Of a stretch of DNA of 64,000 nt, positions 13,704-26,347 are shown one piece after another (the first letter of the stretch is position 1; the number at the start of each line of letters is the position of its first letter). The DNA is taken from positions 1 through 64,000 of the forward strand of contig JAEOTE010000027.1 of the NCBI GenBank assembly GCA_016839945.1. Reading direction: 5' to 3'. Position numbers and translations under genes: made by a program. The notes under the pieces are model-generated. The model saw only the letters and a list, made by a program, of their open reading frames with translations, was not told the DNA's origin and made no database searches. The DNA comes from Candidatus Heimdallarchaeota archaeon (GTDB lineage Archaea > Asgardarchaeota > Heimdallarchaeia > Heimdallarchaeales > Heimdallarchaeaceae).

Positions 13704-14564
13704 TTGAAAATCAAAGTTGTTTCAGATTCTGCAATGGATTTACCAATGGAAATTATAAAAAAGAACAATGTTTCAGTAGTTGCTCATATTGTTCACTTTG
13801 AAGATGAAGAAATGAAAATAGGAATAGAGATATCGGTAAAAGATTACTACAAAAAAATGAAGGAAATGAAAGAAATTCCAAAAAATGCTCCTCCTACTCC
13901 TCAAGATTTTTATGATGTCTTTCAAGCATGTTTTGAAGAGGAGAAATCAGAACATATTGTCTATGTTGGAGTTTCAGAGAAACTATCATCAACTGTAAAT
14001 GTTGCTAGAATTGCATCAAGGAAATTCGAAAAAGGAATAACAATTTTTAATACAGAATCAGCTTCTGGAGTAGAAGGATTAATGGTTCTAGCAATTACTA
14101 AACTTCTGAAGAAAGGAAAATCATTAACCGAGATCTTGGAATTTATGGAGAAATTAAAAGAAGAATATATCTTGAGTGTTGGTTTCCATACCTTAGAGAA
14201 TGTTCACAAATCTGGAAGACTAAAATCAAAATTTATTCTCAATCTTACCAAAATTATGGGAATAAAACCAATCGCTATTATGGAGTTACCTGGAGTTCTG
14301 AAATCAACATTACCCGGTTTTTTCACAGAGAAATCAATGGAAAAAAGAATAATCAAAACTGTAATGAAAAAAGCAAAAAGAGATAGAACATATGATATGG
14401 TAATTTCTCATGTAGAAAACTCAAAAGGCTCCCAAAGAATAGCAAAAAAAATAATAAAAAATCTGAACATAAAAGAACATTATACTACAGAAGCATCTCC
14501 AGTTGTAGGAACAAATACAGGAGAAGGAACAATCATAGTATCACTTCTACCATCAATTAAGTAA
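13704..14564 (+). CDS. DegV/FakB family fatty-acid-binding protein (copy 1)
   Basis: VVSDSAMDLP, SEKLSST, SGRL, IKPI, C-terminal SPVVGTNTGEG. Confidence 0.88.
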   Translation: MKIKVVSDSAMDLPMEIIKKNNVSVVAHIVHFEDEEMKIGIEISVKDYYKKMKEMKEIPKNAPPTPQDFYDVFQACFEEEKSEHIVYVGVSEKLSSTVNVARIASRKFEKGITIFNTESASGVEGLMVLAITKLLKKGKSLTEILEFMEKLKEEYILSVGFHTLENVHKSGRLKSKFILNLTKIMGIKPIAIMELPGVLKSTLPGFFTEKSMEKRIIKTVMKKAKRDRTYDMVISHVENSKGSQRIAKKIIKNLNIKEHYTTEASPVVGTNTGEGTIIVSLLPSIK

Positions 14565-14587
14565 TCATAAAAAAAAATTAATAAGAA

Positions 14588-15430
14588 CTACTTCTTTCGA
14601 TTTTCTAGAAAAACATTAATTCTCTTTGCTATCTCTTCTTCTTTTCCTTCATGAACTCTATGCATTTGTGTTTTAATTTGATTTACTTCTGATTCTTTGA
14701 GTACTAAAAACTTTTGAGCTTTTTCTGGTCCAATAAAATGGTCTTTTTCAGAAACGAACATTTGAATTGGTATATCAATTTCACTCTGTCTCCCTCTTAT
14801 ATCAAATGGATGAATAAATTCAACAACAAACCTTCTTAGACTCCAGTCATCATTTTTCTTCAATCTCTCTGCTGCCCAAGTCACATTTGCTGAATCACCT
14901 GTTCCTCTGATTTTTAAATAAAATCTATAGAGAGCAATAATCATTTTTTGAACAAAGGTCATTATAAATGTTGGAATCCAACCTAAGACTGGTAACCAGA
15001 AAGGAGTTCCATAATGCTCTTGAGGACTGAAAACTATCAATGTATGAGGTTTAGGTCCTTCCCCATCTAGACAATATTGAAAACTTTGAGATCCTCCACT
15101 GCAACTTCCAAGAATTATAAAATCCTTATCTTCAAAATTCAAATGCTTTATTAATATGGAAAGCTCAATGTTGTAATCATTTGGATTGAAATAACCTTTT
15201 TTGTGAGTAGTAATAGTTTTTCCGAAACCTCTAGGTTCGTAAAGAGTAACATTGCTATAGTATTGCAAAGCTTTGGCTATATTTGTGAAGTTATCAATTG
15301 CACTAAGCCATCCAGGGATTAATATAATGTTACGATGAGAATATTTCTCGTTAATGCAAGGAAATTTAGCTATTCTTACCTGAAATTCTGGTTTCTCTTT
15401 AACTTTGACATATTCAATAGTTGGTTCCAT
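14588..15430 (-). CDS. Alpha/beta hydrolase, G-S-C-x-G family (copy 1)
   Basis: PGWLS, YEPRGFGK, elbow GSCSGG, EKDHF, HRV. Confidence 0.85.
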   Translation of the reverse strand: MEPTIEYVKVKEKPEFQVRIAKFPCINEKYSHRNIILIPGWLSAIDNFTNIAKALQYYSNVTLYEPRGFGKTITTHKKGYFNPNDYNIELSILIKHLNFEDKDFIILGSCSGGSQSFQYCLDGEGPKPHTLIVFSPQEHYGTPFWLPVLGWIPTFIMTFVQKMIIALYRFYLKIRGTGDSANVTWAAERLKKNDDWSLRRFVVEFIHPFDIRGRQSEIDIPIQMFVSEKDHFIGPEKAQKFLVLKESEVNQIKTQMHRVHEGKEEEIAKRINVFLENRKK

Positions 15431-15490
15431 TATACCAATTTGAAAATATATACATTTATCTGTTTCTGAAGAGAAAAAGAAAAAGAGAGA

Positions 15491-16162
15491 TTATTTGTCA
15501 GGATTCTCTTTGTGGCATAACCACCAATCTAAGCATTCAATACTTTCATCAGCAAGACGTTCTTTTGCTGTCTCAACATCACTTGCAGGAGGTATTATTA
15601 CATGGTCTCCAAAAAGCTCGTTGTCAGGCCAATTTGCAGGCATGGCAACATCATATTTAGTAGCTACTTTCAAACCCTTAATCATTCTTAGAATCTCTTT
15701 CATATTACGACCAAGTTCTGAAGGATAGTAGAGAATAGCTCTAACAATTCCTTTAGGATCAAGAATAAAAACAGCTCTAACTGTATTGGATGATTTTGGA
15801 TGGATCATCCCTAATCTTTTTGCTATCTCTCCATGATCTGCAATTATTGGGAATTTTATTTCTTCACCAATGTTCTCTTTAATCCAATCAACCCATTTAA
15901 TGTGACTAAAAACTTGATCAATGCTTAATCCAAGAAGTTCAACATTCATTGATTTAAATTCATCGTAATGTTTCTGAAAAGAAACAAATTCAGTTGTACA
16001 TACTGGAGTATAATCTGCAGGATGACTGAATAGAATAAGCCAATGTCCTGTGTAATCTCCTGGCAATTTCTTCATTCCATGAGTGGTTTGTACAACCATT
16101 TTTGGAAATGGAGTGCCTATTAGTGGGATTTTTCCTGTTTCTTCATATTCTTTTTGAGTCAA
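15491..16162 (-). CDS. Peroxiredoxin (archaeal Prx6/TDXH type)
   Basis: [30 protein letters not shown]-terminal CLDWWLC. Confidence 0.95.
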
Positions 16163-16332
16163 TTATATCACTAATCAAACGTTCAAAGAATCTTTTTAAA
16201 TCTTTTATTTTTACAAAAAATCTTACTGTAGTCTTTGTAATTATATTAAATACAGAAGGTTGTATAATATAGATATTATTCACGTTTTTAAAAGAAGAAT
16301 CAATTCTTCTAAAATTAGCAAGGTGTATTCCT

Positions 16333-16599
16333 ATGACATTTGAGGTAATAGATAAAATTTGTAATGAGCATAAAATGACAAAAATACCATTATTAAATTC
16401 AATAGAAATTAAAGGTGACAAAATTTTCTTATTTAAAGAGAAGCTTGATAGTGAGCTTCTGAAAACATACAAATATGACAAAATTACATCTAAGAAAGAA
16501 CCTTTTACTATTGAAGATATTGATGGAGTTTTAGGAGAATTAAGAAATTACTTCAAAGAGAAGATGATTATATTCTATAAAAGTTCAAAAAAGATATAG
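16333..16599 (+). CDS. Small hypothetical protein
   Basis: 88-aa ORF filling the gap between genes, with host-like codon usage; no motif. Confidence 0.45.
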   Translation: MTFEVIDKICNEHKMTKIPLLNSIEIKGDKIFLFKEKLDSELLKTYKYDKITSKKEPFTIEDIDGVLGELRNYFKEKMIIFYKSSKKI

Positions 16600-16620
16600 T
16601 ATCACAATTTTAAATTGCAA

Positions 16621-17220
16621 TTAGTAAAAAACATCTTCTCCTTCTTTTGCAACTTCTTCTTCTCTAGCGATAATAGACCTTATCAGTCCATGAATAACAT
16701 TAAATCTTGGAACTTTTTTCATGTATAATCGATAGGGGTAACCATAAGATTCTTGGAAGAGACTGTCTTTTTCATAAGAAGAGAGAAAGAAAGAGATTAC
16801 AGCCATAATTGATAAAACATTAGATAATATTGAATTTATTAGAAAGATTAGAGAGAAGGATGCTATAATTATCCCTAGTGTTATTGGGTGTCTTACATAA
16901 GCAAAAATCATTAAATTTTTGAATTTGTTAAGATTGGTTGTTCCTTTTCTTTTTATCCATCTTCTGTGTGATGTAAGAATACCTAATAGTATCATGATTA
17001 TCGCTAACAGTGCCAGTGAAGCAGCTATTATTGTGTAGTATGGTAGTTCAGTATACTCACCTATTGTCTCAGGTAGACTCAGTGAGAGTATAATGAACAA
17101 CAAACCTATAGCTTGGAAAGTTTCATATCGAATACTTTTGAAAACTGAATGAATGAACCACAATAAAGCTACAAGGGAGAGGAAACCAATAGCTATCCAA
17201 AACCACACTTCATCTATCAC
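16621..17220 (-). CDS. ICMT/PEMT-like membrane methyltransferase
   Basis: Multi-TM; YVRHP..LG and YG..Y..Y.KKVPRF motifs. Confidence 0.8.
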   Translation of the reverse strand: MIDEVWFWIAIGFLSLVALLWFIHSVFKSIRYETFQAIGLLFIILSLSLPETIGEYTELPYYTIIAASLALLAIIMILLGILTSHRRWIKRKGTTNLNKFKNLMIFAYVRHPITLGIIIASFSLIFLINSILSNVLSIMAVISFFLSSYEKDSLFQESYGYPYRLYMKKVPRFNVIHGLIRSIIAREEEVAKEGEDVFY

Positions 17221-17311
17221 AAGTGTATATTTGTATAGCTACTTATTGAATTTTTCTGCTATTAAAAATTCTTTTAAATGAAAGTATATCCATAATAACA
17301 GAGAATGGAAA

Positions 17312-18034
17312 ATGTCTTCAAAACAGAATGTAGGATTTCTACTAATTCATGGATTTACAGGAACTCACTACGAAATGCAACCTTTAGCTGATTTTCTTAT
17401 AGAAAAAGGTTTTACTGTAGAAAACATAACCTTACCAGGACATGAAACAACAGAAGAAGACCTAATTACTAAAAAATGGACAGAATTTACAGATTCTGCT
17501 CAAAAAGAGTTAGACAGATTAAAAGAAAAATGCGAAAAGGTTTTTGTCTGTGGACTTTCAATGGGTGGTGCAATTACTTTATATCTAGGTGCAACAAATC
17601 CTGACATTAATGGCGCTATTCCTATGGCAGCTGTTTGCAAACCTCCTGATTGGAGAATGTATTTCTTAGCTATTCCATTTGTACATCATATTTATCCTAA
17701 GTATAGAAATACTGAAAGTGGTTGGGAGGATTTACAAGCTTTGGAAACTCACAAAAGCTATGAAAATTATCCTATTAAATCAGTTAGTCAGCTTTTTTGG
17801 ATGATTAGAAAAGTAAAGAAACTAACGAAGAAAATAGAAATCCCAATTTTAGTAGTACACAGTAAGAAGGATCTAAGTGTTCCAAAAAAACAAGCTGAAT
17901 GGATATTCAATAATGTTCAATCTAAAGATAAAGAAATTGTAGAAATTGTCAAAGGAGGACATGTAATTCCTAAAGATGCAGGTAGGTTTCAGCTTTTTGA
18001 AGCTGTTGAGAAATGGATAGAAAAAAGGATATAA
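17312..18034 (+). CDS. Carboxylesterase / monoacylglycerol-lipase-like Ser hydrolase
   Basis: HGFTG, LPGH, elbow GLSMGG, D (KKDLSV), H (GGHV). Confidence 0.9.
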   Translation: MSSKQNVGFLLIHGFTGTHYEMQPLADFLIEKGFTVENITLPGHETTEEDLITKKWTEFTDSAQKELDRLKEKCEKVFVCGLSMGGAITLYLGATNPDINGAIPMAAVCKPPDWRMYFLAIPFVHHIYPKYRNTESGWEDLQALETHKSYENYPIKSVSQLFWMIRKVKKLTKKIEIPILVVHSKKDLSVPKKQAEWIFNNVQSKDKEIVEIVKGGHVIPKDAGRFQLFEAVEKWIEKRI

Positions 18035-18039
18035 TAAAA

Positions 18040-18891
18040 CTAAAAACTATTAACTGCTTCTTTTATTGCATCATAGCATTTGTCTAGGAGTAAATTCATT
18101 CTTTCTTGTTCAACTTCATAAGGGAATTTAGGTAGATCAGATCTTTCTAACAATTCTTCCTTTGTTGTTTCATCAACCACTAAATCCTCTATTTTCTTTA
18201 CTAGAAGCTCTAGATACTTTTGCTGAATTTCTAGTTCTTCTTTATATGTTATTGGTCCATGTCCTGGAACTACTTTCTTTGGTGTTAAATAGATCATTTG
18301 TGTGTATGCATCAATCCATAGATAAGGGTCTACTGTTGGATCTCCTCCATATGGGAACATCTCTGAAAAAAGTAAATCTCCTGCAATTATTACTTCATCT
18401 TTTGGAACATAAACATAACAACTTCCTTTGCAATGTCCATGAGTTTCGATAATCTCTACTTGTTCATCGTTTTCTTTTATAACATAATCTCCTACAAAGG
18501 TTTTAGTGGGTAGTGTAAGTTCCAAATCTTGCCATTTTTCCTTAAATTCAGGATTCTCCGAAAGAAAATTAGCTATTTTCTCTTCTGTCCAATTTTCTGC
18601 AAAATCTTTCTCCATCATCTTTTGAGTATCAACTGTAGCGATGATTTCGCAATCCTTGAAAACTTGATTACCACAAATATGATCATAATGATAATGGGTT
18701 AAAACTAGATACTTGATAGGGACTCCCATGATTTTTTCAGCTGCATCTCTTGCATTCTTAGCAGAGATAGGATCTAATCCACTATCAACCATTATTCCAA
18801 TGTTCTTTAATTTAATAGAAGCCACATTACATCTAGTTTCTCCTTTTGTATGAGCCCAAACATTATCTGAAACTTGTTCAAGTTCAACCAT
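18040..18891 (-). CDS. MBL-fold metallo-hydrolase (cyclase-like)
   Basis: THYHYDH, GH, AGDLLF, VPGHG. Confidence 0.9.
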   Translation of the reverse strand: MVELEQVSDNVWAHTKGETRCNVASIKLKNIGIMVDSGLDPISAKNARDAAEKIMGVPIKYLVLTHYHYDHICGNQVFKDCEIIATVDTQKMMEKDFAENWTEEKIANFLSENPEFKEKWQDLELTLPTKTFVGDYVIKENDEQVEIIETHGHCKGSCYVYVPKDEVIIAGDLLFSEMFPYGGDPTVDPYLWIDAYTQMIYLTPKKVVPGHGPITYKEELEIQQKYLELLVKKIEDLVVDETTKEELLERSDLPKFPYEVEQERMNLLLDKCYDAIKEAVNSF

Positions 18892-19038
18892 TAAAATCAA
18901 AGAATGAATTTATTGGTTGAATAAATAGTTTTCTGAAAAATTATAAATTTCACAATTTCAACGAGAAACAACATATTGATTGATTTAGTATCATTTTATA
19001 TATTGCAGAAAATTAAAAAAATAGAAGAACTAGTCAAA

Positions 19039-20526
19039 CTAGTTCAATTTAGATTTTTTCTTACGAATTCTAGTAACTACAAACAGGAAAATACAAGCAC
19101 TAATTATCGTACTAAAGATTATGGTATATTCAGTAAGATTAAAGTCAATTTTAGCCAATTCAGGAACAATTGGAGGTTCTCCAAAATATTTGTAAAAAAC
19201 ATCATAGTCTGTTCCAGCACCTGCATAATCAGTCCAATCACTCCATGCTACATGAACAGTGCCATCAGAATTGATTGCAAGAGAAGGATTAACAGAAGAA
19301 CTAGTACTTTCTGTGGAAATGACTTCGGTAATGGTCCAAGAGGAGGAGGAAGCATTCCAACTCTTGTAGAAAATATCTACATCTGTTCCAGCTCCAGCAA
19401 AATTTGTATAATCGTACCAGACTATATGCACGTCCCCTGCAGAATCGACAGCAAGAGAAGGACGCTCCGAAAGAGCTGTACTTTCTGTTGACACAACTTC
19501 TGTTATAGTCCAGGAGGAGGAAGAAGCGTCCCAGTGTTTGTAGAAGATATCCGTATCTATTCCAGCTCCAGCATAATCAGTTTCATCATACCAAGCTATG
19601 TGAACATTTCCAGAACTATCGACAGCAAGAGAAGGATGATAAGAATGACCTGTACTTTCTGTTGACACAACTTCTGTTGTGGTCCAGGAGGAGGAGGAAG
19701 CATTCCATTGTTTGTAGAAAATATCAAAACTTGCCCCTGACCCATCCCACCACACTATATGGATATTACCAGAGGAGTCGATTGCAATTGAAGGATATAC
19801 AGAATAACCTACATTCCCTGAAGAAACGATTTCTGTTAAAGTCCACAAGGATAAGGAAGCATTCCAACTCTTGTAGAAAATATCATTATCTGTTCCAGCT
19901 CCAGCATAATCTGTTTGATCCTGCCATGCTATGTGTAAATTCCTAACAGAATCAGTGATGAGAGAAGGATTATAAGAGTAACCTGTACTCTCTGAAGAAA
20001 CGATTTCTGCAGTGGTCCAGGAGGAGGAGGAAGCGTTCCATTGTTTGTAGAAAATATCAGAGTCTGTTCCACTCCCAGCATAATTAGTATAATCGTACCA
20101 GACTATATGCACGTCCCCTGCAGAATCGACAGCAAGAGAAGGACGGATAGAATCATTTATACTTTCTGTGGACACGACTTCTGTAATGGTCCAGGAGGAG
20201 GAAGAAGCGTCCCAGCGCTTATAGAAAATATCATCTATTATTCCACTTCCAGCATAATCAGTAGTATCCTGCCAAGCTATGTGTATATTTCCTGCATTGT
20301 CAACAGCAAGAGAGGAGGAACCAGAATAATCCGTACTTTCTGTGGAAACAACTTCTGTTATGCTCCATTTCCAAGTAGTTCTATCAAAAGAATTTATGTT
20401 GTAATGGCTATTTTTTTCCTCTACCAGTGCTTTTACATTATTTACATTCAGAGAAGAAGTGTTTATTAAAAATCCTATAAGAATAATACTTGAAATCATA
20501 AAAAATCTCATTTTTTTCTTTTTCAT
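19039..20526 (-). CDS. Cell-surface protein with 7 tandem ~58-aa repeats (probable beta-propeller)
   Basis: N-terminal signal/TM; 7 repeats of WT.TEVVSTES...S..PSLAVDS.G.VHI.W.D.T.YAG.G.D.DIFYK.W.ASSSS; C-terminal TM and basic tail. Confidence 0.85.
   Translation of the reverse strand: MKKKKMRFFMISSIILIGFLINTSSLNVNNVKALVEEKNSHYNINSFDRTTWKWSITEVVSTESTDYSGSSSLAVDNAGNIHIAWQDTTDYAGSGIIDDIFYKRWDASSSSWTITEVVSTESINDSIRPSLAVDSAGDVHIVWYDYTNYAGSGTDSDIFYKQWNASSSSWTTAEIVSSESTGYSYNPSLITDSVRNLHIAWQDQTDYAGAGTDNDIFYKSWNASLSLWTLTEIVSSGNVGYSVYPSIAIDSSGNIHIVWWDGSGASFDIFYKQWNASSSSWTTTEVVSTESTGHSYHPSLAVDSSGNVHIAWYDETDYAGAGIDTDIFYKHWDASSSSWTITEVVSTESTALSERPSLAVDSAGDVHIVWYDYTNFAGAGTDVDIFYKSWNASSSSWTITEVISTESTSSSVNPSLAINSDGTVHVAWSDWTDYAGAGTDYDVFYKYFGEPPIVPELAKIDFNLTEYTIIFSTIISACIFLFVVTRIRKKKSKLN
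19190..20370 (-). repeat. Intragenic tandem repeat, ~174-bp unit x7 (unit 4 is 15 bp shorter); boundaries approximate
   Basis: Recurrent ccaggaggaggaagaagc and tactttctgt; exact 59-bp duplicate at 19406-19464 and 20087-20145. Confidence 0.9.
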
Positions 20527-20720
20527 ATTATCAAACCTATTTCATTATCAATTTCGAACATATTTATACGAAATTTATGAATCATGAACATTAAGTGTAA
20601 AAAATAAAAACTTTTTCCAGTCTTTTATAAGCAATTAAATTTTTGAAACCTAAATTTCTTCAACTTAATAATGCAATTCTGAAGAAAATCCAGCTTATTA
20701 GATATAAAGAAAAAAGTCGT

Positions 20721-22661
20721 CTACAATTCATCTAGTAAATTGTAGATTTCTTCATCTATGTTATTCAATCTTTCTTCTAATTCTTCAATCAGTTTTCTTT
20801 TACCTTCCATCGTTTCAAACAGATTATTCATTCTTTCTACATATTTCGCTCTTGTTTTTCCTTCGTCTCCTTCACTTATTAAAACTTCAATAGAAGAGGT
20901 TATACGTTGATACTCCTGATCAATTCTATTTAGATTTGATTGTTCAGTGTTTATTTGCTCATCAATTTGTTTTTTCTCTTTTCTAATCTGTTTGATTTTC
21001 TTCAAAATATCAACTTGTTTTTCTTTTAGTGTATCTAATTTCAAAAGGTCATCCAAGTAGTCATCAGAAATTGATGCTATTGAAACACTTTCAGATGTTT
21101 TTCTAAAGGTTGGAATCTCTATCTTTGTAAGAGATTTAGGTTCTACATCTATTTTTGCTCTGAAATAGTTTGGAGTTTCTTTTGTATCAACTTTTATTTT
21201 CTTTTTATCTATTTCATAATCATACATTTTTGGAACTTCACAGATTACTGTTTTTTCCTCATCGCATTTATTGTCGATTTCCAATTTGTATTTTTTATTG
21301 TTAATATAGGTTTCAACATAGTATTGACCTGATAGAGATATACCTATTTTCTTTGACATAGATGTTTCTTCTTGTTTAACAACTATATCTTGTTCAACTA
21401 AATAAGGTACTATTTGTTTTTCTCCTTTTGGAACTCGCTTTAGCATAGCTTCTCCAGCATATTCACCTAAATCATAGATAGTTACTGGTCCTTCTTCCCA
21501 TCCATAGCTGGTTATGTTTTCTATTTCAATTGCTTTGAATGGATGAGTTGCATGTTGCTGTTGATTATAGATATTGATTGTTTCTTTTGGAATATCCATA
21601 GAATTAAGCAATAACAAAGCTGATTCCCCTTTCTTAATTGATACAGGCTGTTTTAAGCTAAAGGAAACACTCTCTGTAGTAGTTATAATTTCAGCTGATT
21701 CTGCAGCTCCAACTGCATATTCATAAGGTTCCTCTTCCATATCCATATCAGCTACACTTGCAAAAGCTCTAGCTCGCTTTGCTTTCTTCATCGGTGCCCC
21801 TGCTACAGCAGCTGCCATTGGAGGTGGTGCAGCTCTTAAAGCTTCTTTATATTCTGCTTCAGGTGTCATTACACTTATTCCCATTTGTTTCGGTCTTTGA
21901 ACAAAAGGACGATCGATAATCCAGGGTGAACTGATATCATATCTGAACGAGATTGGTAATCCAGTGATAAGTTTCATATTAGCATCTATCCAGTCTTGTT
22001 GTGAGTTATTTGTTACTAAACTCCACAATTCGAAAACAGCGTTTTCTTTATCAAGTGAATAAATTCTATATGAAGATTGCCAAGCTGGAAGTTCTGTTAG
22101 ATAAGAAACATTAACTACTTTTTCTCCTTCTTCCGTAAAGGAAATTTTCAGATTTTTTACATCCTCTTTCTTACTTTTTACCAGTATTTCTAATTGATCT
22201 TCAAGCGTTTTTTGAAAGAATTCTTCAATTGGAACAACGTGTTTGATCTCATTTGAATCAAGGTGAAGAATTTGAGAATTTGCATCAACCAAAATAACTT
22301 CAAGTTTGGTTACTTCTTCACTTTCAGATTCTAGATATTGATAACCTACTAATTGTCCTTTTACAGTCTGTCCATCTTTAGTAGTTATATCAACTTTTGA
22401 GCCGGAAAGAACATCTAGAATTGAAGTAAATGCTTCACCTTCGTAATCAATCTCAAGATCTTTCATAATATCAGTGTCAAATGCAATAGATGAAAGCAGA
22501 GCTTCCCCTTCAATTTCTACTTTGAAGGTTTTAAGGAAATCATTTTGATTTTTAACTAGAACTGGAAATAACACTTCTTTTTCACTAAAAGAAGCATTGG
22601 ATTTAAGCCATCCCACACCCATCTTATATAATATTACCTCATTAACTTCAAAAACTACCAT
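20721..22661 (-). CDS. DUF4139/DUF4140-type protein with C-terminal coiled coil
   Basis: VILYKMGVG, SYLTELPAWQSSYRI, VTNNSQQDW, LITG.P, F.LKQPVSIKKGESALL, HPF, EGPVTIY. Confidence 0.75.
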   Translation of the reverse strand: MVVFEVNEVILYKMGVGWLKSNASFSEKEVLFPVLVKNQNDFLKTFKVEIEGEALLSSIAFDTDIMKDLEIDYEGEAFTSILDVLSGSKVDITTKDGQTVKGQLVGYQYLESESEEVTKLEVILVDANSQILHLDSNEIKHVVPIEEFFQKTLEDQLEILVKSKKEDVKNLKISFTEEGEKVVNVSYLTELPAWQSSYRIYSLDKENAVFELWSLVTNNSQQDWIDANMKLITGLPISFRYDISSPWIIDRPFVQRPKQMGISVMTPEAEYKEALRAAPPPMAAAVAGAPMKKAKRARAFASVADMDMEEEPYEYAVGAAESAEIITTTESVSFSLKQPVSIKKGESALLLLNSMDIPKETINIYNQQQHATHPFKAIEIENITSYGWEEGPVTIYDLGEYAGEAMLKRVPKGEKQIVPYLVEQDIVVKQEETSMSKKIGISLSGQYYVETYINNKKYKLEIDNKCDEEKTVICEVPKMYDYEIDKKKIKVDTKETPNYFRAKIDVEPKSLTKIEIPTFRKTSESVSIASISDDYLDDLLKLDTLKEKQVDILKKIKQIRKEKKQIDEQINTEQSNLNRIDQEYQRITSSIEVLISEGDEGKTRAKYVERMNNLFETMEGKRKLIEELEERLNNIDEEIYNLLDEL

Positions 22662-22700
22662 TATAATCAAAAATTAATATGCTTGGTTTGACTTAAAACC

Positions 22701-23543
22701 TTATTGTTGCGATTCTATTTTATTAACAAAATCTTCTACATACTTAGTAATTTTTGCTTCTTTACCAGCATAAACTCTATGTACATCTCCCATGTTGACT
22801 ATTTCCGATTTGGGATGGTAGTGAACAAATTTCATTGATTTTTCAGCTTTAATAAACCAATCACCTTCTCCATAGAAAATTATCTGAGGAACATCTAACT
22901 CTTTTTCTCTGCCTCTAATATCATAACCAAAAAAGAATTCAAAAAGAAAACGGAAGAGAGGATATAAATCGTTTTTAGTAAATTTATCTTTTGAGTACTT
23001 CAAATTTTTCATTTCATTTGGACTTTTAATTCTTAAATAGAGCATTAAGAAGAAGAAGATTATTTTATAAGCTAACCATAGAAGCGGCCAAGGTAAAAAC
23101 CTTAACAACATAAACCACCACTTTGTGTCGTTTTTCGCACTTGGACTTGCAGCTAAGAAAGCAATAGGTTTTGGACCAAGTTTTTCGAGGAAGTATAGGT
23201 AACCAATATTGATCCCTGAGCAACTTCCCCAAAGATAAAATTGAGAATCTTTTAAATCATAATGTTTGATTATCTTTGCAAGCTCTTCTATAATAAATTT
23301 AGGTTTGTAAATTCCTCTTTTGCGAGGACCATTTGATTTTCCATGCCCTCTTGGCTCATAAACAATTATACTAGCAAATTGTTGAAATTGTTGTACTAAA
23401 GGCATTATACCTTCAAAATTTCCTAACCAGCCAAGAATTATGAGTATAATTCTATCTTTGTATTTCTCATTTTTGCAAGGAAAGAATGCATGATGTATTC
23501 TAATAAGCGGTTTTTCTGAGACAACAATAAAATTATCATGCAT
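22701..23543 (-). CDS. Alpha/beta hydrolase, G-S-C-x-G family (copy 2)
   Basis: LGWLG, YEPRGHGKS, WGSCSG, EGDWF, HRV. ATG at 23543 aligns with the paralogue starts. Confidence 0.85.
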   Translation of the reverse strand: MHDNFIVVSEKPLIRIHHAFFPCKNEKYKDRIILIILGWLGNFEGIMPLVQQFQQFASIIVYEPRGHGKSNGPRKRGIYKPKFIIEELAKIIKHYDLKDSQFYLWGSCSGINIGYLYFLEKLGPKPIAFLAASPSAKNDTKWWFMLLRFLPWPLLWLAYKIIFFFLMLYLRIKSPNEMKNLKYSKDKFTKNDLYPLFRFLFEFFFGYDIRGREKELDVPQIIFYGEGDWFIKAEKSMKFVHYHPKSEIVNMGDVHRVYAGKEAKITKYVEDFVNKIESQQ

Positions 23544-23625
23544 TTTTGAAAGTTTATTTATCATATAAATAAGTATATTGTAAGAAACATTAACGAATCA
23601 TAATTTAATTAATTCTTAGATTTTA

Positions 23626-24465
23626 TTAATGCGATTCTATTCTTTCAATGAATTTCTCTACATATTCAGCGACTTTTTCTTCATTTCCAGCATAAACTCT
23701 ATGTACATCACCCATGTTTACAAGTTCTGAATCAGGATGATATTGAGCTAATTTCACAGAATTTTCAGGTTTAGTGAACCAATCACCTTCAGAGTATAAA
23801 ATAATTTGAGGAATATCCAATTCCTCTTCTCTACCTCTAATATCATAATCATGTATGAATTCGAAAAGAAAACGAAATAAAGGATATAAATCCATATTAG
23901 CAATTCTGCCTTTTGATTTTTTTAGGTTTCTCTGTTCATCTGGATTTTTTATTCTTAAATAAACATTTAATGAGAAAAAAATAAACTTATAAGTTAGCCA
24001 CAGAAGTGGATAGGGTAATATTTTAAGTATGTTAAACCACCATTTAGTGTTATTTTTATAATCGGGACTTGCAGCGAGAAAAGCTTTTGGTTTAGGACCA
24101 AGTTTTTCAATATGGTATAAATATCCAATTTCAATTCCAGCACAGCTCCCCCAAATATAAAATTGGGAATCTTTTAATTGATATTGTTCGATAATTTTAG
24201 CAAATTCCTCTGATATGATCGTAGGACCATAAATTCCTCTCTTATGCGGTTTACTTGATTTTCCATACCCTCTTGGATCATATGATATTATATTTGCAAA
24301 TTGCTGAAATTGTTCTATTAATGGTAATATACCTTCAATGTTTCCCAGCCAACCAGGGATCATAACAATAAATCTATTTTTGTGCTTTTCTTCTTTACAT
24401 TCGAAGAAAACATGACGTAGTTTTATGAAAGGTTTTTCAGAAATGGTAATATAGTTTTCTTCCAT
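23626..24465 (-). CDS. Alpha/beta hydrolase, G-S-C-x-G family (copy 3)
   Basis: PGWLG, YDPRGYGKS, WGSCAG, EGDWF, HRV. Confidence 0.85.
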   Translation of the reverse strand: MEENYITISEKPFIKLRHVFFECKEEKHKNRFIVMIPGWLGNIEGILPLIEQFQQFANIISYDPRGYGKSSKPHKRGIYGPTIISEEFAKIIEQYQLKDSQFYIWGSCAGIEIGYLYHIEKLGPKPKAFLAASPDYKNNTKWWFNILKILPYPLLWLTYKFIFFSLNVYLRIKNPDEQRNLKKSKGRIANMDLYPLFRFLFEFIHDYDIRGREEELDIPQIILYSEGDWFTKPENSVKLAQYHPDSELVNMGDVHRVYAGNEEKVAEYVEKFIERIESH

Positions 24466-24507
24466 CACATCTAATTCGTTTTATTTGTAATAAACTTATT
24501 CCATAAT

Positions 24508-25338
24508 TTATAAAGCTTGTAAATATTGATTAATATGATTTACAATATCATCTTCGTTTCCATCTATGAACCTATGAGCTTTACTATACTTTACAAGCTT
24601 TGATTTTGGATGGAATTGTGCTAAGTTCTCTGATTCTTTGGGTTTTGAGAACCAATCTTTATCTGCATAGAATATTAATTGAGGGACTCCTATCCCATCC
24701 TCTTTTCCTCGTATATCATATTTATGTATAAATTCTAGGATAATTCTGGCTTGCACATAGAAATCTAGTTCATAAAATCTCTCCATTGAATAATCAAAAT
24801 TTTTTATATCTTCTGGACTTTGTTTGTTCAAATACATCTTAAAAATGATTTTATATATTTTATAAGCAGCCCATAAGATGGGGTAGGGTAAATAATTTAC
24901 AATGCTAAACCATCTAAAAGTATAATGTTTAGAAGCAGTACTCACAGCCAAGATAGCTTTAGGTTTTGGACCTTTATTGTCAATGCAATATTGATAAGCT
25001 ATTTCTGCACCAACACAGCTCCCCCAAATAAAATATTCATCTTCTTTTAATTGATAATGTTTTACAATTTCAGAAAGATCATCTGCATAACAAATTGGTT
25101 TATACAATCCTCGTTTTCTTGGTCCTGAGGATTTACCAAATCCTCGTGGTTCAAACATAATTACATTCGAAATTTCTTGGAAGGCTTTAACTAAAGGCAA
25201 TCTCCTATCAATACTACTTAACCAACCAGGTATTAGAAGTATAGTTCTATTTTTGTATTCCTCATTAGTTGTAGGAAAAAAAGAATGTCTTAGGACTATT
25301 AGTGGTTTTTCTGAAACTGTTAGATATTTCTCTTCCAT
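24508..25338 (-). CDS. Alpha/beta hydrolase, G-S-C-x-G family (copy 4)
   Basis: PGWLS, FEPRGFGKS, WGSCVG, DKDWF, HRF. Confidence 0.85.
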   Translation of the reverse strand: MEEKYLTVSEKPLIVLRHSFFPTTNEEYKNRTILLIPGWLSSIDRRLPLVKAFQEISNVIMFEPRGFGKSSGPRKRGLYKPICYADDLSEIVKHYQLKEDEYFIWGSCVGAEIAYQYCIDNKGPKPKAILAVSTASKHYTFRWFSIVNYLPYPILWAAYKIYKIIFKMYLNKQSPEDIKNFDYSMERFYELDFYVQARIILEFIHKYDIRGKEDGIGVPQLIFYADKDWFSKPKESENLAQFHPKSKLVKYSKAHRFIDGNEDDIVNHINQYLQAL

Positions 25339-25477
25339 CCATTTGTGTGTAATATAGTTAATTAATAAATCATTCTTTCTAACTAACTGAAAATATAGCT
25401 GACAATAATATAATAATATACGTTAAAAATTTTCTTTAAATTAAATTTATATATTACACAAGTTTATTTCTAATATT

Positions 25478-26347
25478 ATGAAAGTTAAAATCTTCACAGA
25501 AGTAACTACTTTTATCCCTGATGAGTTAGCAAAAGAATACAATATAGATTTCGTAGAGTTTTCTTTGTTAATTGACGGAAAATCTTACAAAGAAAAATCA
25601 GAGATTAATAGAGAAGAATTCATCAACACCATGAATGAGATGGACCCTTATCCAACTTCAAGCATGGCAAATCCAAACGAATATTTGGAAGCTTTTCAGA
25701 AAGCTGAAAATGAAGGATATGAAGAAATTCTATATATTGGGATTACCACTAATCTTTCTCAATCTCAAAATTCAGCTAAAATTGCATCCAAACAGATTAA
25801 GAAGGCTAAAGTTACTATATATGATAGTGAGATAATGGGTGCTTGTCAAGGAATCTTGGCTTTATCAGCTGCACATCTTTTTCAGAAAGGAAAATCAATG
25901 GATGAGGTCATTAAGCATCTTGATTCGATTAAAGAAATAACTTATGGTGCTGGATTATCCTCAAGTTTTGAAGTCTTATTTAAAACTGGTAGAGTTAAGA
26001 AAGGAGTAGCAATTTCAGCTATTTCCACAATTATGAGATTAAAACCTATGTATGAATTCAATTATGAGAAAGGAATAACAAGTTTGGGAGGAGGAAGAGG
26101 TTACAAAGGTGCAATCAAAATCTTGATAGAAAATTTCCTTGAGAAAACAGATGAAAACTTGGACTACATTCTAATTATGGGTGATGTCATTAATCCTGAT
26201 CTAATGAAAAAAGTAGAAGCAGAAATAAAGAAAATAAGAAAAATTAAGGAAACATTCTATTGGCCTGTAACAGCAATGGCTGCACATACTTTAGGAAAAG
26301 GTTGTGTTGTTGCTGTTATTGGTCCGTCATGGGAAGTAGAACTGTAA
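25478..26347 (+). CDS. DegV/FakB family fatty-acid-binding protein (copy 2)
   Basis: P.ELAKEYNI, PTSS, TTNLSQS, YDSE, KTGRV, LKP, AAHTLGKG. Confidence 0.88.
   Translation: MKVKIFTEVTTFIPDELAKEYNIDFVEFSLLIDGKSYKEKSEINREEFINTMNEMDPYPTSSMANPNEYLEAFQKAENEGYEEILYIGITTNLSQSQNSAKIASKQIKKAKVTIYDSEIMGACQGILALSAAHLFQKGKSMDEVIKHLDSIKEITYGAGLSSSFEVLFKTGRVKKGVAISAISTIMRLKPMYEFNYEKGITSLGGGRGYKGAIKILIENFLEKTDENLDYILIMGDVINPDLMKKVEAEIKKIRKIKETFYWPVTAMAAHTLGKGCVVAVIGPSWEVEL

Follow-up and report, generated by a model that had tools for sequence, protein, structure and literature searches.

Archaeal cysteine hydrolases paired with DegV carriers probably move fatty-acid chains within a bacterial-type lipid pathway whose usual second enzyme is missing

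One unsettled side of the 'lipid divide' is whether fatty-acyl ester lipids are made by the archaeal relatives of eukaryotes. Wu et al. 2022 (PMC8813620) pointed out that neither of the closed Heimdallarchaeum genomes encodes the enzyme that adds the second acyl chain, and the role of PlsY in Asgard archaea is unresolved (PMC9385802). The window studied here, a stretch of 64,000 nucleotides from a genome placed in the Heimdallarchaeaceae, contains four hydrolase genes and two DegV genes (Table 1). It raises the question of what hydrolases with a cysteine in the place of the usual serine do beside putative fatty-acid carriers. No account of this hydrolase family, nor of DegV in Asgard archaea, was found in the literature searched.

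Table 1. Features of the hydrolase-DegV region, in positions of the window
Feature	Position	Strand	Evidence and remarks
DegV paralogue 1 (clade A)	13704..14564	+	PF02645 E 1.8e-54, 185 bits; PDB DegV/FakB alignments; tree and motif table
Hydrolase copy 1 (clade 1, family-wide core copy)	14588..15430	-	Cys110, Asp230, His257; AF2 model
Hydrolase copy 2 (clade 2)	22701..23543 or ..23564	-	Cys108; AF2 model; most hydrophobic cap
Hydrolase copy 3 (clade 2)	23626..24468	-	Cys elbow; 67% identity to copy 2
Hydrolase copy 4 (clade 2)	24508..25338	-	Cys elbow; head-to-head with DegV paralogue 2
AT-rich spacer, 139 nt	25339..25477	.	Between the divergent starts of copy 4 and DegV paralogue 2
DegV paralogue 2 (clade C)	25478..26347	+	PF02645 E 2.2e-52, 179 bits; trees, loci

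The four paralogues with a Cys elbow proposed in the original prediction are real: all four ORFs are open on the minus strand, the elbows read GSCSG, GSCSG, GSCAG and GSCVG, and all four conserve the shared motifs (P/L)GWL, D-[HW]-F and H-R. For copy 2, 23543 marks the second ATG, a start that agrees with the length of the homologues, and the upstream ATG would add 7 residues; copy 3 has a further ATG at 24465 within its ORF. The pairwise identity of the copies is only 33-67%, so that the triplet (copies 2-4) is no assembly repeat. Tandem copies around an orthologous DegV gene are also found in two relatives (G011 and G029), and an assembly artefact could be ruled out. The predicted DegV layout agrees with the coordinates as well, one gene being convergent with copy 1 across a gap of 23 nt and the other divergent from the triplet, and both proteins pass PF02645 at E<1e-51. 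The spacer upstream of DegV 2 is presumed to be a promoter region shared with copy 4. A scan of it for bacterial promoters gave no score over shuffles, archaeal promoters lying outside the models of the scan. A Ser esterase gene is syntenic between the two hydrolase-DegV modules.

In the AF2 model of copy 1 (pLDDT 89), Cys110 is the single turn residue between strand 104-109 and helix 111-122. The same can be observed for Cys108 of copy 2 (pLDDT 92.5), between strand 102-107 and helix 109-119. Both models end the strand at Ser and begin the helix directly after Cys, which places Cys, and not the preceding Ser, at the elbow, as had been proposed. Ser109 was rejected as nucleophile: it lies inside the strand, and its alignment column varies among the 106 homologues (S, G, T, N, M, F). 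Column 110 holds only Cys (89/106) or Ser (17/106), and Cys110 is invariant across the 47 clade-1 sequences of the core clade alignment. In alignments with solved enzymes, the elbow Cys falls on the catalytic Ser motif. In the model of copy 1, Asp230 follows strand 222-227 and His257 follows strand 248-252; the acid is Asp in 105/105 and the base His in 102/102 ungapped homologue rows, and both align with the triad residues of 3fob. The modelled strand order and these invariant columns place the predicted Cys-Asp-His triad at the canonical positions of the fold.

Copies 1 and 2 are modelled as canonical alpha/beta-hydrolases with a cap. PF00561/PF12146 was matched in all 63 family members, and Foldseek returned capped alpha/beta-hydrolases (E 5e-14, TM about 0.73-0.74). 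The VIA comparison gave 3om8 (Z 26.0, rmsd 3.2, 251 aligned), 7ozm, an M. tuberculosis MGL (Z 23.8, rmsd 3.4, 246 aligned), 6i8w (Z 23.1) and 7ots, human ABHD6 (Z 22.6). Every structural neighbour is a hydrolase, with an identity of 10-19%, and searches of the ESM Atlas returned generic or unnamed hydrolase clusters only. The cap is helical and about 65 residues long in both models; it is hydrophobic, in support of the aromatic amphipathic lid proposed, and most so in copy 2 (maximal 19-residue hydropathy 1.92). The hydrolase sequences have no signal peptide.

An enzyme of storage polyesters (akin to PHA synthase or to an intracellular PHA depolymerase) or a catabolic enzyme resembling dienelactone hydrolase is very improbable. 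Copy 1 fits G-x-C-x-G-G (copies 2-4 have I, I and A at the last position), a PHB depolymerase model was matched weakly (39 bits against a cut-off of 300), and weak dienelactone hydrolase (DLH) matches occur in 11 of the 63 members (best E 0.0034). However, a PhaC-family Pfam match was found in 0/63 members and a PhaC NCBIfam match in neither copy 1 nor copy 4; PF01738 did not match the four copies at E 0.01, the family scores being far below the cut-off. The long helical cap also argues against such enzymes, and pha or aromatic-catabolism genes were not recognised in the neighbourhoods examined. The top fold rows are many tied esterases, and structures of PhaC and DLH were not among the top matches listed.

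The hydrolase family is present in all 31 Heimdallarchaeaceae genomes. At least 5 changes between Cys and Ser are seen on its tree, and the Cys is therefore not obligatory. The Ser elbow occurs mainly in extra copies or DegV-unlinked clades, and Ser-type relatives in Spirochaetota and in the sister family have no DegV neighbour. Nonetheless, two Ser copies lie beside DegV (L055, L059), and some Cys members have no DegV beside them (G004/L052, L045). In the closed genome of H. endolithica PR6, the only family gene is split by a transposase/IS (L030) and is therefore dispensable there; a role as sole essential PlsC substitute was rejected on this ground.

The source genome encodes 15 DegV proteins. 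Two of the 14 scored DegV genes adjoin the hydrolase family, against 0.02 expected by shuffling (p ~1e-4, post hoc and for one genome). Across genomes, DegV adjoins clade 1 at 30 of 31 informative loci, in four flanking contexts, and clade 2 at 10 of 11, with different DegV clades as partners. The proposed linkage thus recurs in other genomes and goes beyond plain synteny. Of the two neighbourhood links that the original prediction suggested checking, to DegV and to FakA, only the former was borne out: FakA genes are absent from the family loci examined, and linkage to FakA itself was rejected.

The adjacency might also be a relic of ancestral gene order, dating from one or two events and without functional significance, the hydrolases then being ordinary small-substrate esterases or lactonases. 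The best sequence and fold matches are indeed arylesterases and haloperoxidase-like enzymes, synteny of the main locus extends broadly over the Heimdallarchaeaceae, whose genomes are all kin, and the pairs are convergent or divergent. Neither pair is co-oriented in the source genome, and neither is therefore an operon. Since the family is confined to one archaeal family, the linkage rests on few ancestral events. This reading is nevertheless unlikely. The flanks of the main locus vary (adenine deaminase beyond DegV at 18/23 loci, peroxiredoxin upstream at 15/27), and the pair persists as a two-gene unit with both flanks changed in three further contexts (L006/L009, L015/L016/L018 and L053/L041). 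It was duplicated as a unit and also lost as a unit, clade-2 hydrolase and DegV being jointly absent at 11 loci. Furthermore, two non-orthologous DegV clades occupy the one position beside the triplet, clade C here being unlike most relatives.

A sister hydrolase family (REK) repeats the link to DegV and PlsY in other orientations, which further weakens the reading as inherited gene order. It shows co-oriented DegV-hydrolase-PlsY runs (L099, L100), and FakA-DegV-PlsY operons occur in the same class (L096-L098); these loci were picked from coordinate lists and are not a blind sample. At none of the best 30 sister-family loci does DegV or PlsY lie within 1.5 kb, so only a subset of this family is linked.

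In FakB1, T62, S95, R173 and H270 bind the carboxylate and R205 docks FakA (PMC10848957). Both DegVs score above the cut-off of TIGR00762 and far below the 350-bit cut-off of the FakB1 equivalog. Alignment to DegV/FakB structures of the PDB showed that both keep the equivalents of Ser95 and Arg173. DegV 1 has Asn at the equivalents of Thr62 and His270 and is missing that of Arg205, in place of which its clade conserves a hydrophobic tip resembling P-G-F-F. DegV 2, whose nearest solved relative is S. aureus FakB1, has Ser in place of the Thr and a His one residue off. It carries the docking Arg, which its wider clade does not conserve and which is present in only 2 of 14 DegVs of the source genome. 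FakA is represented there by two N-domain genes (TIGR03599 E 6e-69 and 3e-72) and one stand-alone middle domain; a true C-domain was not found in this genome. For this reason, and because DegV 1 has no docking Arg, its acyl-phosphate cargo is only putative.

PlsY is encoded in 31/31 and the FakA N-domain in 30/31 Heimdallarchaeaceae genomes, PlsC (PF01553) in 0/31. The hydrolases do not match PF01553, and their fold differs from that of the PlsC-type LPA acyltransferase. Several PlsY paralogues could perform further acylations. In families f2 and f7, PlsC and the hydrolase family are both absent. The description of the host as an ether-lipid archaeon found no support: GGGP synthase could not be detected in 30/30 relatives, two closed genomes among them. 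The source genome has a single AMP-binding enzyme and a single acyl-CoA dehydrogenase, and the fatty acids consequently look destined for lipids and not for burning.

The predicted acyl-chain role is well grounded, since the genome encodes PlsY and kinase domains like those of FakA. It is likely that the hydrolases act on long acyl chains in concert with DegV, whichever the direction. The 'new system' of the original prediction is narrower than proposed: the hydrolases are a new family that is accessory to the known Fak/PlsY route and confined to one archaeal family. Tentatively favoured is a membrane-surface acyltransferase that forms an acyl-Cys intermediate and has a DegV carrier of its own. 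Such an enzyme would be cytoplasmic and sit at the membrane surface, serving a bacterial-type pathway of DegV carriers, split FakA and PlsY, with its cap dipping into the membrane. The Cys would attack an activated acyl donor, which may be a thioester or the acyl-phosphate bound to the partner DegV, generating an acyl-thioester enzyme. Subsequently, the acceptor of the chain would be a lipid or another membrane component, not water. The extra copies, some reverted to Ser, may serve for other chains or be hydrolases. In MacB-TE, a Cys enzyme transfers without hydrolysis, an oxygen ester cannot acylate the Cys, and the C89S variant hydrolyses (PMC13288461).

Counted for the acyltransferase were this precedent, the elbow Cys and its core-clade invariance, the DegV pairing despite changed flanks, the co-absence of clade-2 enzyme and DegV, the DegV-PlsY runs of the REK family, the FakA-DegV-PlsY operons of the class, the restriction of the elbow column to Cys or Ser, with Ser mainly in extra copies or unlinked clades, the presence of PlsY and the FakA N-domain, the lack of PlsC and the likely destination of the fatty acids in lipids. 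Counted against it were the repeated Cys/Ser changes, the Ser copies beside DegV and the Cys members without it, the IS-split gene, the joint absence in f2 and f7, the several PlsY paralogues, the hydrolase-only fold neighbours, the missing docking Arg of DegV 1 and FakA C-domain, the non-operonic pairs and the restriction to one lineage.

Somewhat doubtful is a hydrolase that releases fatty acids (lipase, lysophospholipase, thioesterase or acyl-phosphatase) and in which Cys is tolerated in place of Ser. It would release chains from ester lipids, either scavenged or the cell's own, and load the adjoining DegV for reuse by FakA/PlsY. This is consistent with the Ser relatives within the family, the carboxylate-binding residues retained in both DegVs, the syntenic Ser esterase, and fold neighbours that include, among many tied hydrolases, monoacylglycerol lipases and a membrane phospholipase A. 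However, the Cys is invariant in the core clade, yet oxygen esters acylate Cys poorly in the precedent (PMC13288461), and the DegV-less clades are the Ser-type ones. Distinctly unlikely is the most far-reaching form of the acyltransferase proposal, that Heimdallarchaeaceae make ester-linked fatty-acyl membrane lipids without PlsC and GGGP synthase, the Cys enzyme being a new kind of second acyltransferase that would use acyl-phosphate directly from its dedicated DegV to acylate the lyso-lipid formed by PlsY.

The family provides small, cloneable acyl-handling candidates in a PlsC-less lineage, each with a genomically assigned carrier. Its natural Cys and Ser members also form a set in which the effect of the nucleophile on transfer versus hydrolysis can be studied. 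Even plain lipases would show fatty-acid scavenging machinery in these archaea, with lesser impact.

When compared to the FakA/FakB-PlsY system of S. aureus and S. suis (PMC10848957), the DegV fold with its Ser95 and Arg173 equivalents, the FakA N-domain homologues and PlsY are shared. However, FakA is split here with no C-domain found, there are 15 DegVs and neither PlsX nor PlsC, DegV 1 lacks the equivalents of Thr62, His270 and Arg205, and the hydrolase-fold partner is absent from the described system. With the capped Abhydrolase_1/Hydrolase_4 enzymes (P. fluorescens arylesterase 1va4, P. aeruginosa 3om8, 7ozm and 7ots), the hydrolases have in common the fold, the cap position and the order of nucleophile, acid and His. 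They differ by an identity of 10-19%, the Cys elbow of most members, a PGW instead of an HG oxyanion loop, the H-R motif, a longer and more hydrophobic cap and the DegV linkage. The G-x-C-x-G elbow is shared with dienelactone hydrolase (PF01738), but the scores stay far below the cut-off of that family, and the large cap and the lipid-pathway context set the present hydrolases apart. PhaC and BAAT are further Cys-nucleophile transferases of this fold, and BAAT C235S is reportedly another precedent. MacB-TE (PMC13288461) likewise has a Cys-Asp-His triad at the elbow, an expected acyl-thioester and Ser cousins that hydrolyse. In contrast, the hydrolases have no detectable membership in these families and are stand-alone proteins; no carrier-protein/CoA pathway was identified, and the partner is a non-covalent fatty-acid carrier.

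The window lies on an 82-kb contig of a 3.0-Mb genome that is 88% complete, and synteny and searches assign to the same family H. aukensis and H. endolithica, whose genomes are closed. Translation and ORF calls put the four hydrolase genes on the minus strand and confirm the motifs of the original prediction, and a PF02645-type domain search finds both DegV genes where it had located them. Copy 1 shares 33-34% identity with the other three hydrolases, which are 44-67% identical among themselves. Their homologues are annotated as Candidatus Heimdallarchaeaceae or Heimdallarchaeota proteins.

The hydrolase family is compact: among 1.8 billion representatives, 17 clusters are recovered at E < 1e-30, followed by generic hydrolases. 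Members occur in 31/31 genomes of the Heimdallarchaeaceae-type family and, as Ser types, in all three genomes of one sister family; none were found elsewhere among the 83 genomes of the class searched. One Ser-type clade also occurs in Spirochaetota. Trees resolve four clades, namely clade 1 (copy 1), clade 2 (the triplet, copies 2-4) and two Ser clades, with a minimum of five Cys/Ser changes (elbow columns masked; quick tree, deep forks open). The Cys is invariant in clade 1 (47/47 sequences), and Ser elbows occur in duplicates and in clades without a DegV link. In one relative (G010), the Ser-elbow hydrolase and its TGA-bearing DegV possibly represent joint decay.

The original prediction placed Cys, rather than the preceding Ser, at the nucleophile elbow, and this assignment holds. 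In a profile of 63 homologues, the Cys falls on the catalytic Ser motif of bromoperoxidase- and esterase-type enzymes with solved structures; their other triad residues line up with the Asp and the His. In AlphaFold models of copies 1 and 2 (pLDDT 89 and 92.5), a strand ends at the Ser, the Cys is the single turn residue and a helix follows. Across 106 family sequences, no residue other than Cys (89) or Ser (17) occurs in the elbow column; six different residues occupy the column before it. Because of this position in the models, the Cys/Ser-only column and the variable preceding column, the predicted elbow Cys looks like a catalytic nucleophile.

Fold searches exclusively returned capped esterase-like hydrolases (10-19% identity). 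The proteins fall outside the family models of dienelactone hydrolase and PHA synthase. The cap (approximately residues 140-206) contains a long hydrophobic helix, whose 19-residue mean hydropathy reaches 1.92 in copy 2; three other hydrolases of the source genome score 0.5-0.9. The N-termini open with a strand and show no signal peptide. A monotopic location at the cytoplasmic face is predicted.

Positions of hydrolase and DegV modules, neighboring genes and lipid-pathway genes (window, or L-numbered loci)
Location	Strand	Feature	Remark
window:3561-4514		another hydrolase-fold match	weak (Hydrolase_4, E 1e-4); N-terminal membrane anchor
window:13704-14564	+	DegV 1, clade A	convergent with copy 1
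window:14588-15430	-	hydrolase copy 1	
window:16621-17220	-	ICMT/PEMT-like membrane protein	between the two modules; syntenic in most relatives
window:17312-18034	+	Ser-type esterase	between the two modules; syntenic in most relatives
window:19039-20526		secreted-type BNR/beta-propeller repeat protein	C-terminal hydrophobic anchor; no counterpart at this position in relatives' loci
window:20721-22670		649-aa DUF4139-like protein	C-terminal coiled coil; directly downstream of triplet, often retained at locus
window:22701-23543	-	hydrolase copy 2	upstream ATG 23564
window:23626-24468	-	hydrolase copy 3	
window:24508-25338	-	hydrolase copy 4	
window:25478-26347	+	DegV 2, clade C	divergent from triplet
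window:26353-27414		353-aa protein	convergent with DegV 2; 57-97% identity across family; no Pfam or NCBIfam match
L059:4816-6616		clade-2 hydrolase, Ser elbow	G010; divergent DegV with in-frame TGA
L030:5983-7840		sole hydrolase-family gene of closed H. endolithica PR6	interrupted by transposase gene
L063:3412-6103		DegV, then two co-oriented ExREK Ser hydrolases	contig C57; third DegV-hydrolase locus of source genome
L099:1873-4612		DegV, ExREK hydrolase, PlsY	family f7; co-oriented run
L100:2058-4643		DegV, ExREK hydrolase, PlsY	family f7; co-oriented run
L001:1381-2022		FakA kinase N-domain	source genome
L002:1408-2091		FakA kinase N-domain	source genome
L065:3524-3835		103-aa FakA middle domain	source genome
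L038:1426-2160		PlsY paralogue	source genome
L039:1387-2202		PlsY paralogue	source genome
L111:1467-2243		GGGP synthase	7.6-kb contig of source assembly

The ICMT/PEMT-like protein and the Ser-type esterase may be part of the same lipid cluster.

The source genome has 15 DegV genes; 2 of the 14 scored adjoin the hydrolase family, against 0.02 expected by shuffling. Matching coordinates against the loci showed the linkage across the family: of 31 informative loci, 30 have a clade-A DegV convergent with the clade-1 hydrolase (G004 is the exception), and the clade-2 hydrolase has an adjoining DegV in 10/11 (exception: G024). Much of this count can be put down to inheritance, since the main locus is syntenic across the family. 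Four patterns go beyond synteny. The pair is intact where the flanks on both sides differ (L006/L009; L053/L041), it was copied to a new site as a two-gene unit (L015, L016, L018/L062), and 11 loci lack both the clade-2 gene and its DegV. Moreover, the second DegV slot holds clade C in the window versus the non-orthologous clade B in most relatives (both 100/100 support). No DegV neighbor was found for the Ser clades in eight loci. The arrangement recurs in a sister hydrolase family with the ExREK motif, of which the source genome has ten copies, two with their own Cys elbows (C140, C154); divergent or co-oriented DegV-ExREK pairs are also found in two further genomes (G016 and G008). From the four patterns and this repeat, the link is probably functional, although few events, all within a single class, underlie it.

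Both partner DegVs retain the equivalents of FakB Ser95 and Arg173 and deviate at those of Thr62 and His270. In clade A, a conserved hydrophobic tip replaces the FakA-docking Arg. By their residues, the partners look like specialized carriers.

FakA is split in this family, and the source genome carries two stand-alone kinase domains and one stand-alone middle domain. No true C-domain was found, and other families of the class have longer versions (about 320 aa). The two PlsY homologues are divergent paralogues. A high-scoring PlsY, present in 26/31 family genomes, is absent from the source assembly, probably through incompleteness. PlsX was not found in the source genome, and beta-oxidation genes are few. 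Family-wide, PlsY occurs in 31/31 and FakA-N in 30/31 genomes. PlsC occurs in 0/31 and is present in sister families f3 and f4; its gap in Heimdallarchaeum has already been published (PMC8813620). In family f7, with 4-13 PlsY copies per genome and neither PlsC nor GGGP synthase, FakA-DegV-PlsY operons show that DegV proteins of the class serve PlsY.

The original prediction also presumed an ether-lipid membrane. This premise gained no support, since no convincing GGGP synthase was found in 30 relatives, including two closed genomes, and the only copy among the 31 is doubtful. The PRPP synthetase next to it is a second one, sharing just 32% identity with the other copy; the GGGP synthase itself may be a private transfer, a contaminant or a stray from binning.

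Mechanistically, the Cys would form an acyl-thioester with long acyl chains that would be exchanged with DegV. Transfer from an activated donor is the tentatively favored direction, since the core copy never departs from Cys and acyl-phosphate is a cargo of DegV proteins in the known system. It is also favored by MacB-TE, an assayed enzyme of the same fold, whose Cys form is a transferase that oxygen esters do not acylate and whose Ser mutant hydrolyzes (PMC13288461). A close second is that the hydrolase frees a fatty acid and loads it onto DegV. The boldest form of the transfer reading, an acyltransferase that stands in for PlsC in an archaeon with ester lipids, we consider improbable. An essential role is argued against by the transposase-split sole gene of H. 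endolithica and by other PlsC-less families that do without these enzymes.

The hydrolases form a real, undescribed family of the hydrolase fold whose elbow Cys is the predicted nucleophile. Its genes are coupled to those of divergent DegV carriers, in Asgard archaea with an incomplete bacterial-type ester-lipid route. What had been proposed as a new system is not categorically new: the Cys-hydrolase family is a new attachment to a known pathway.
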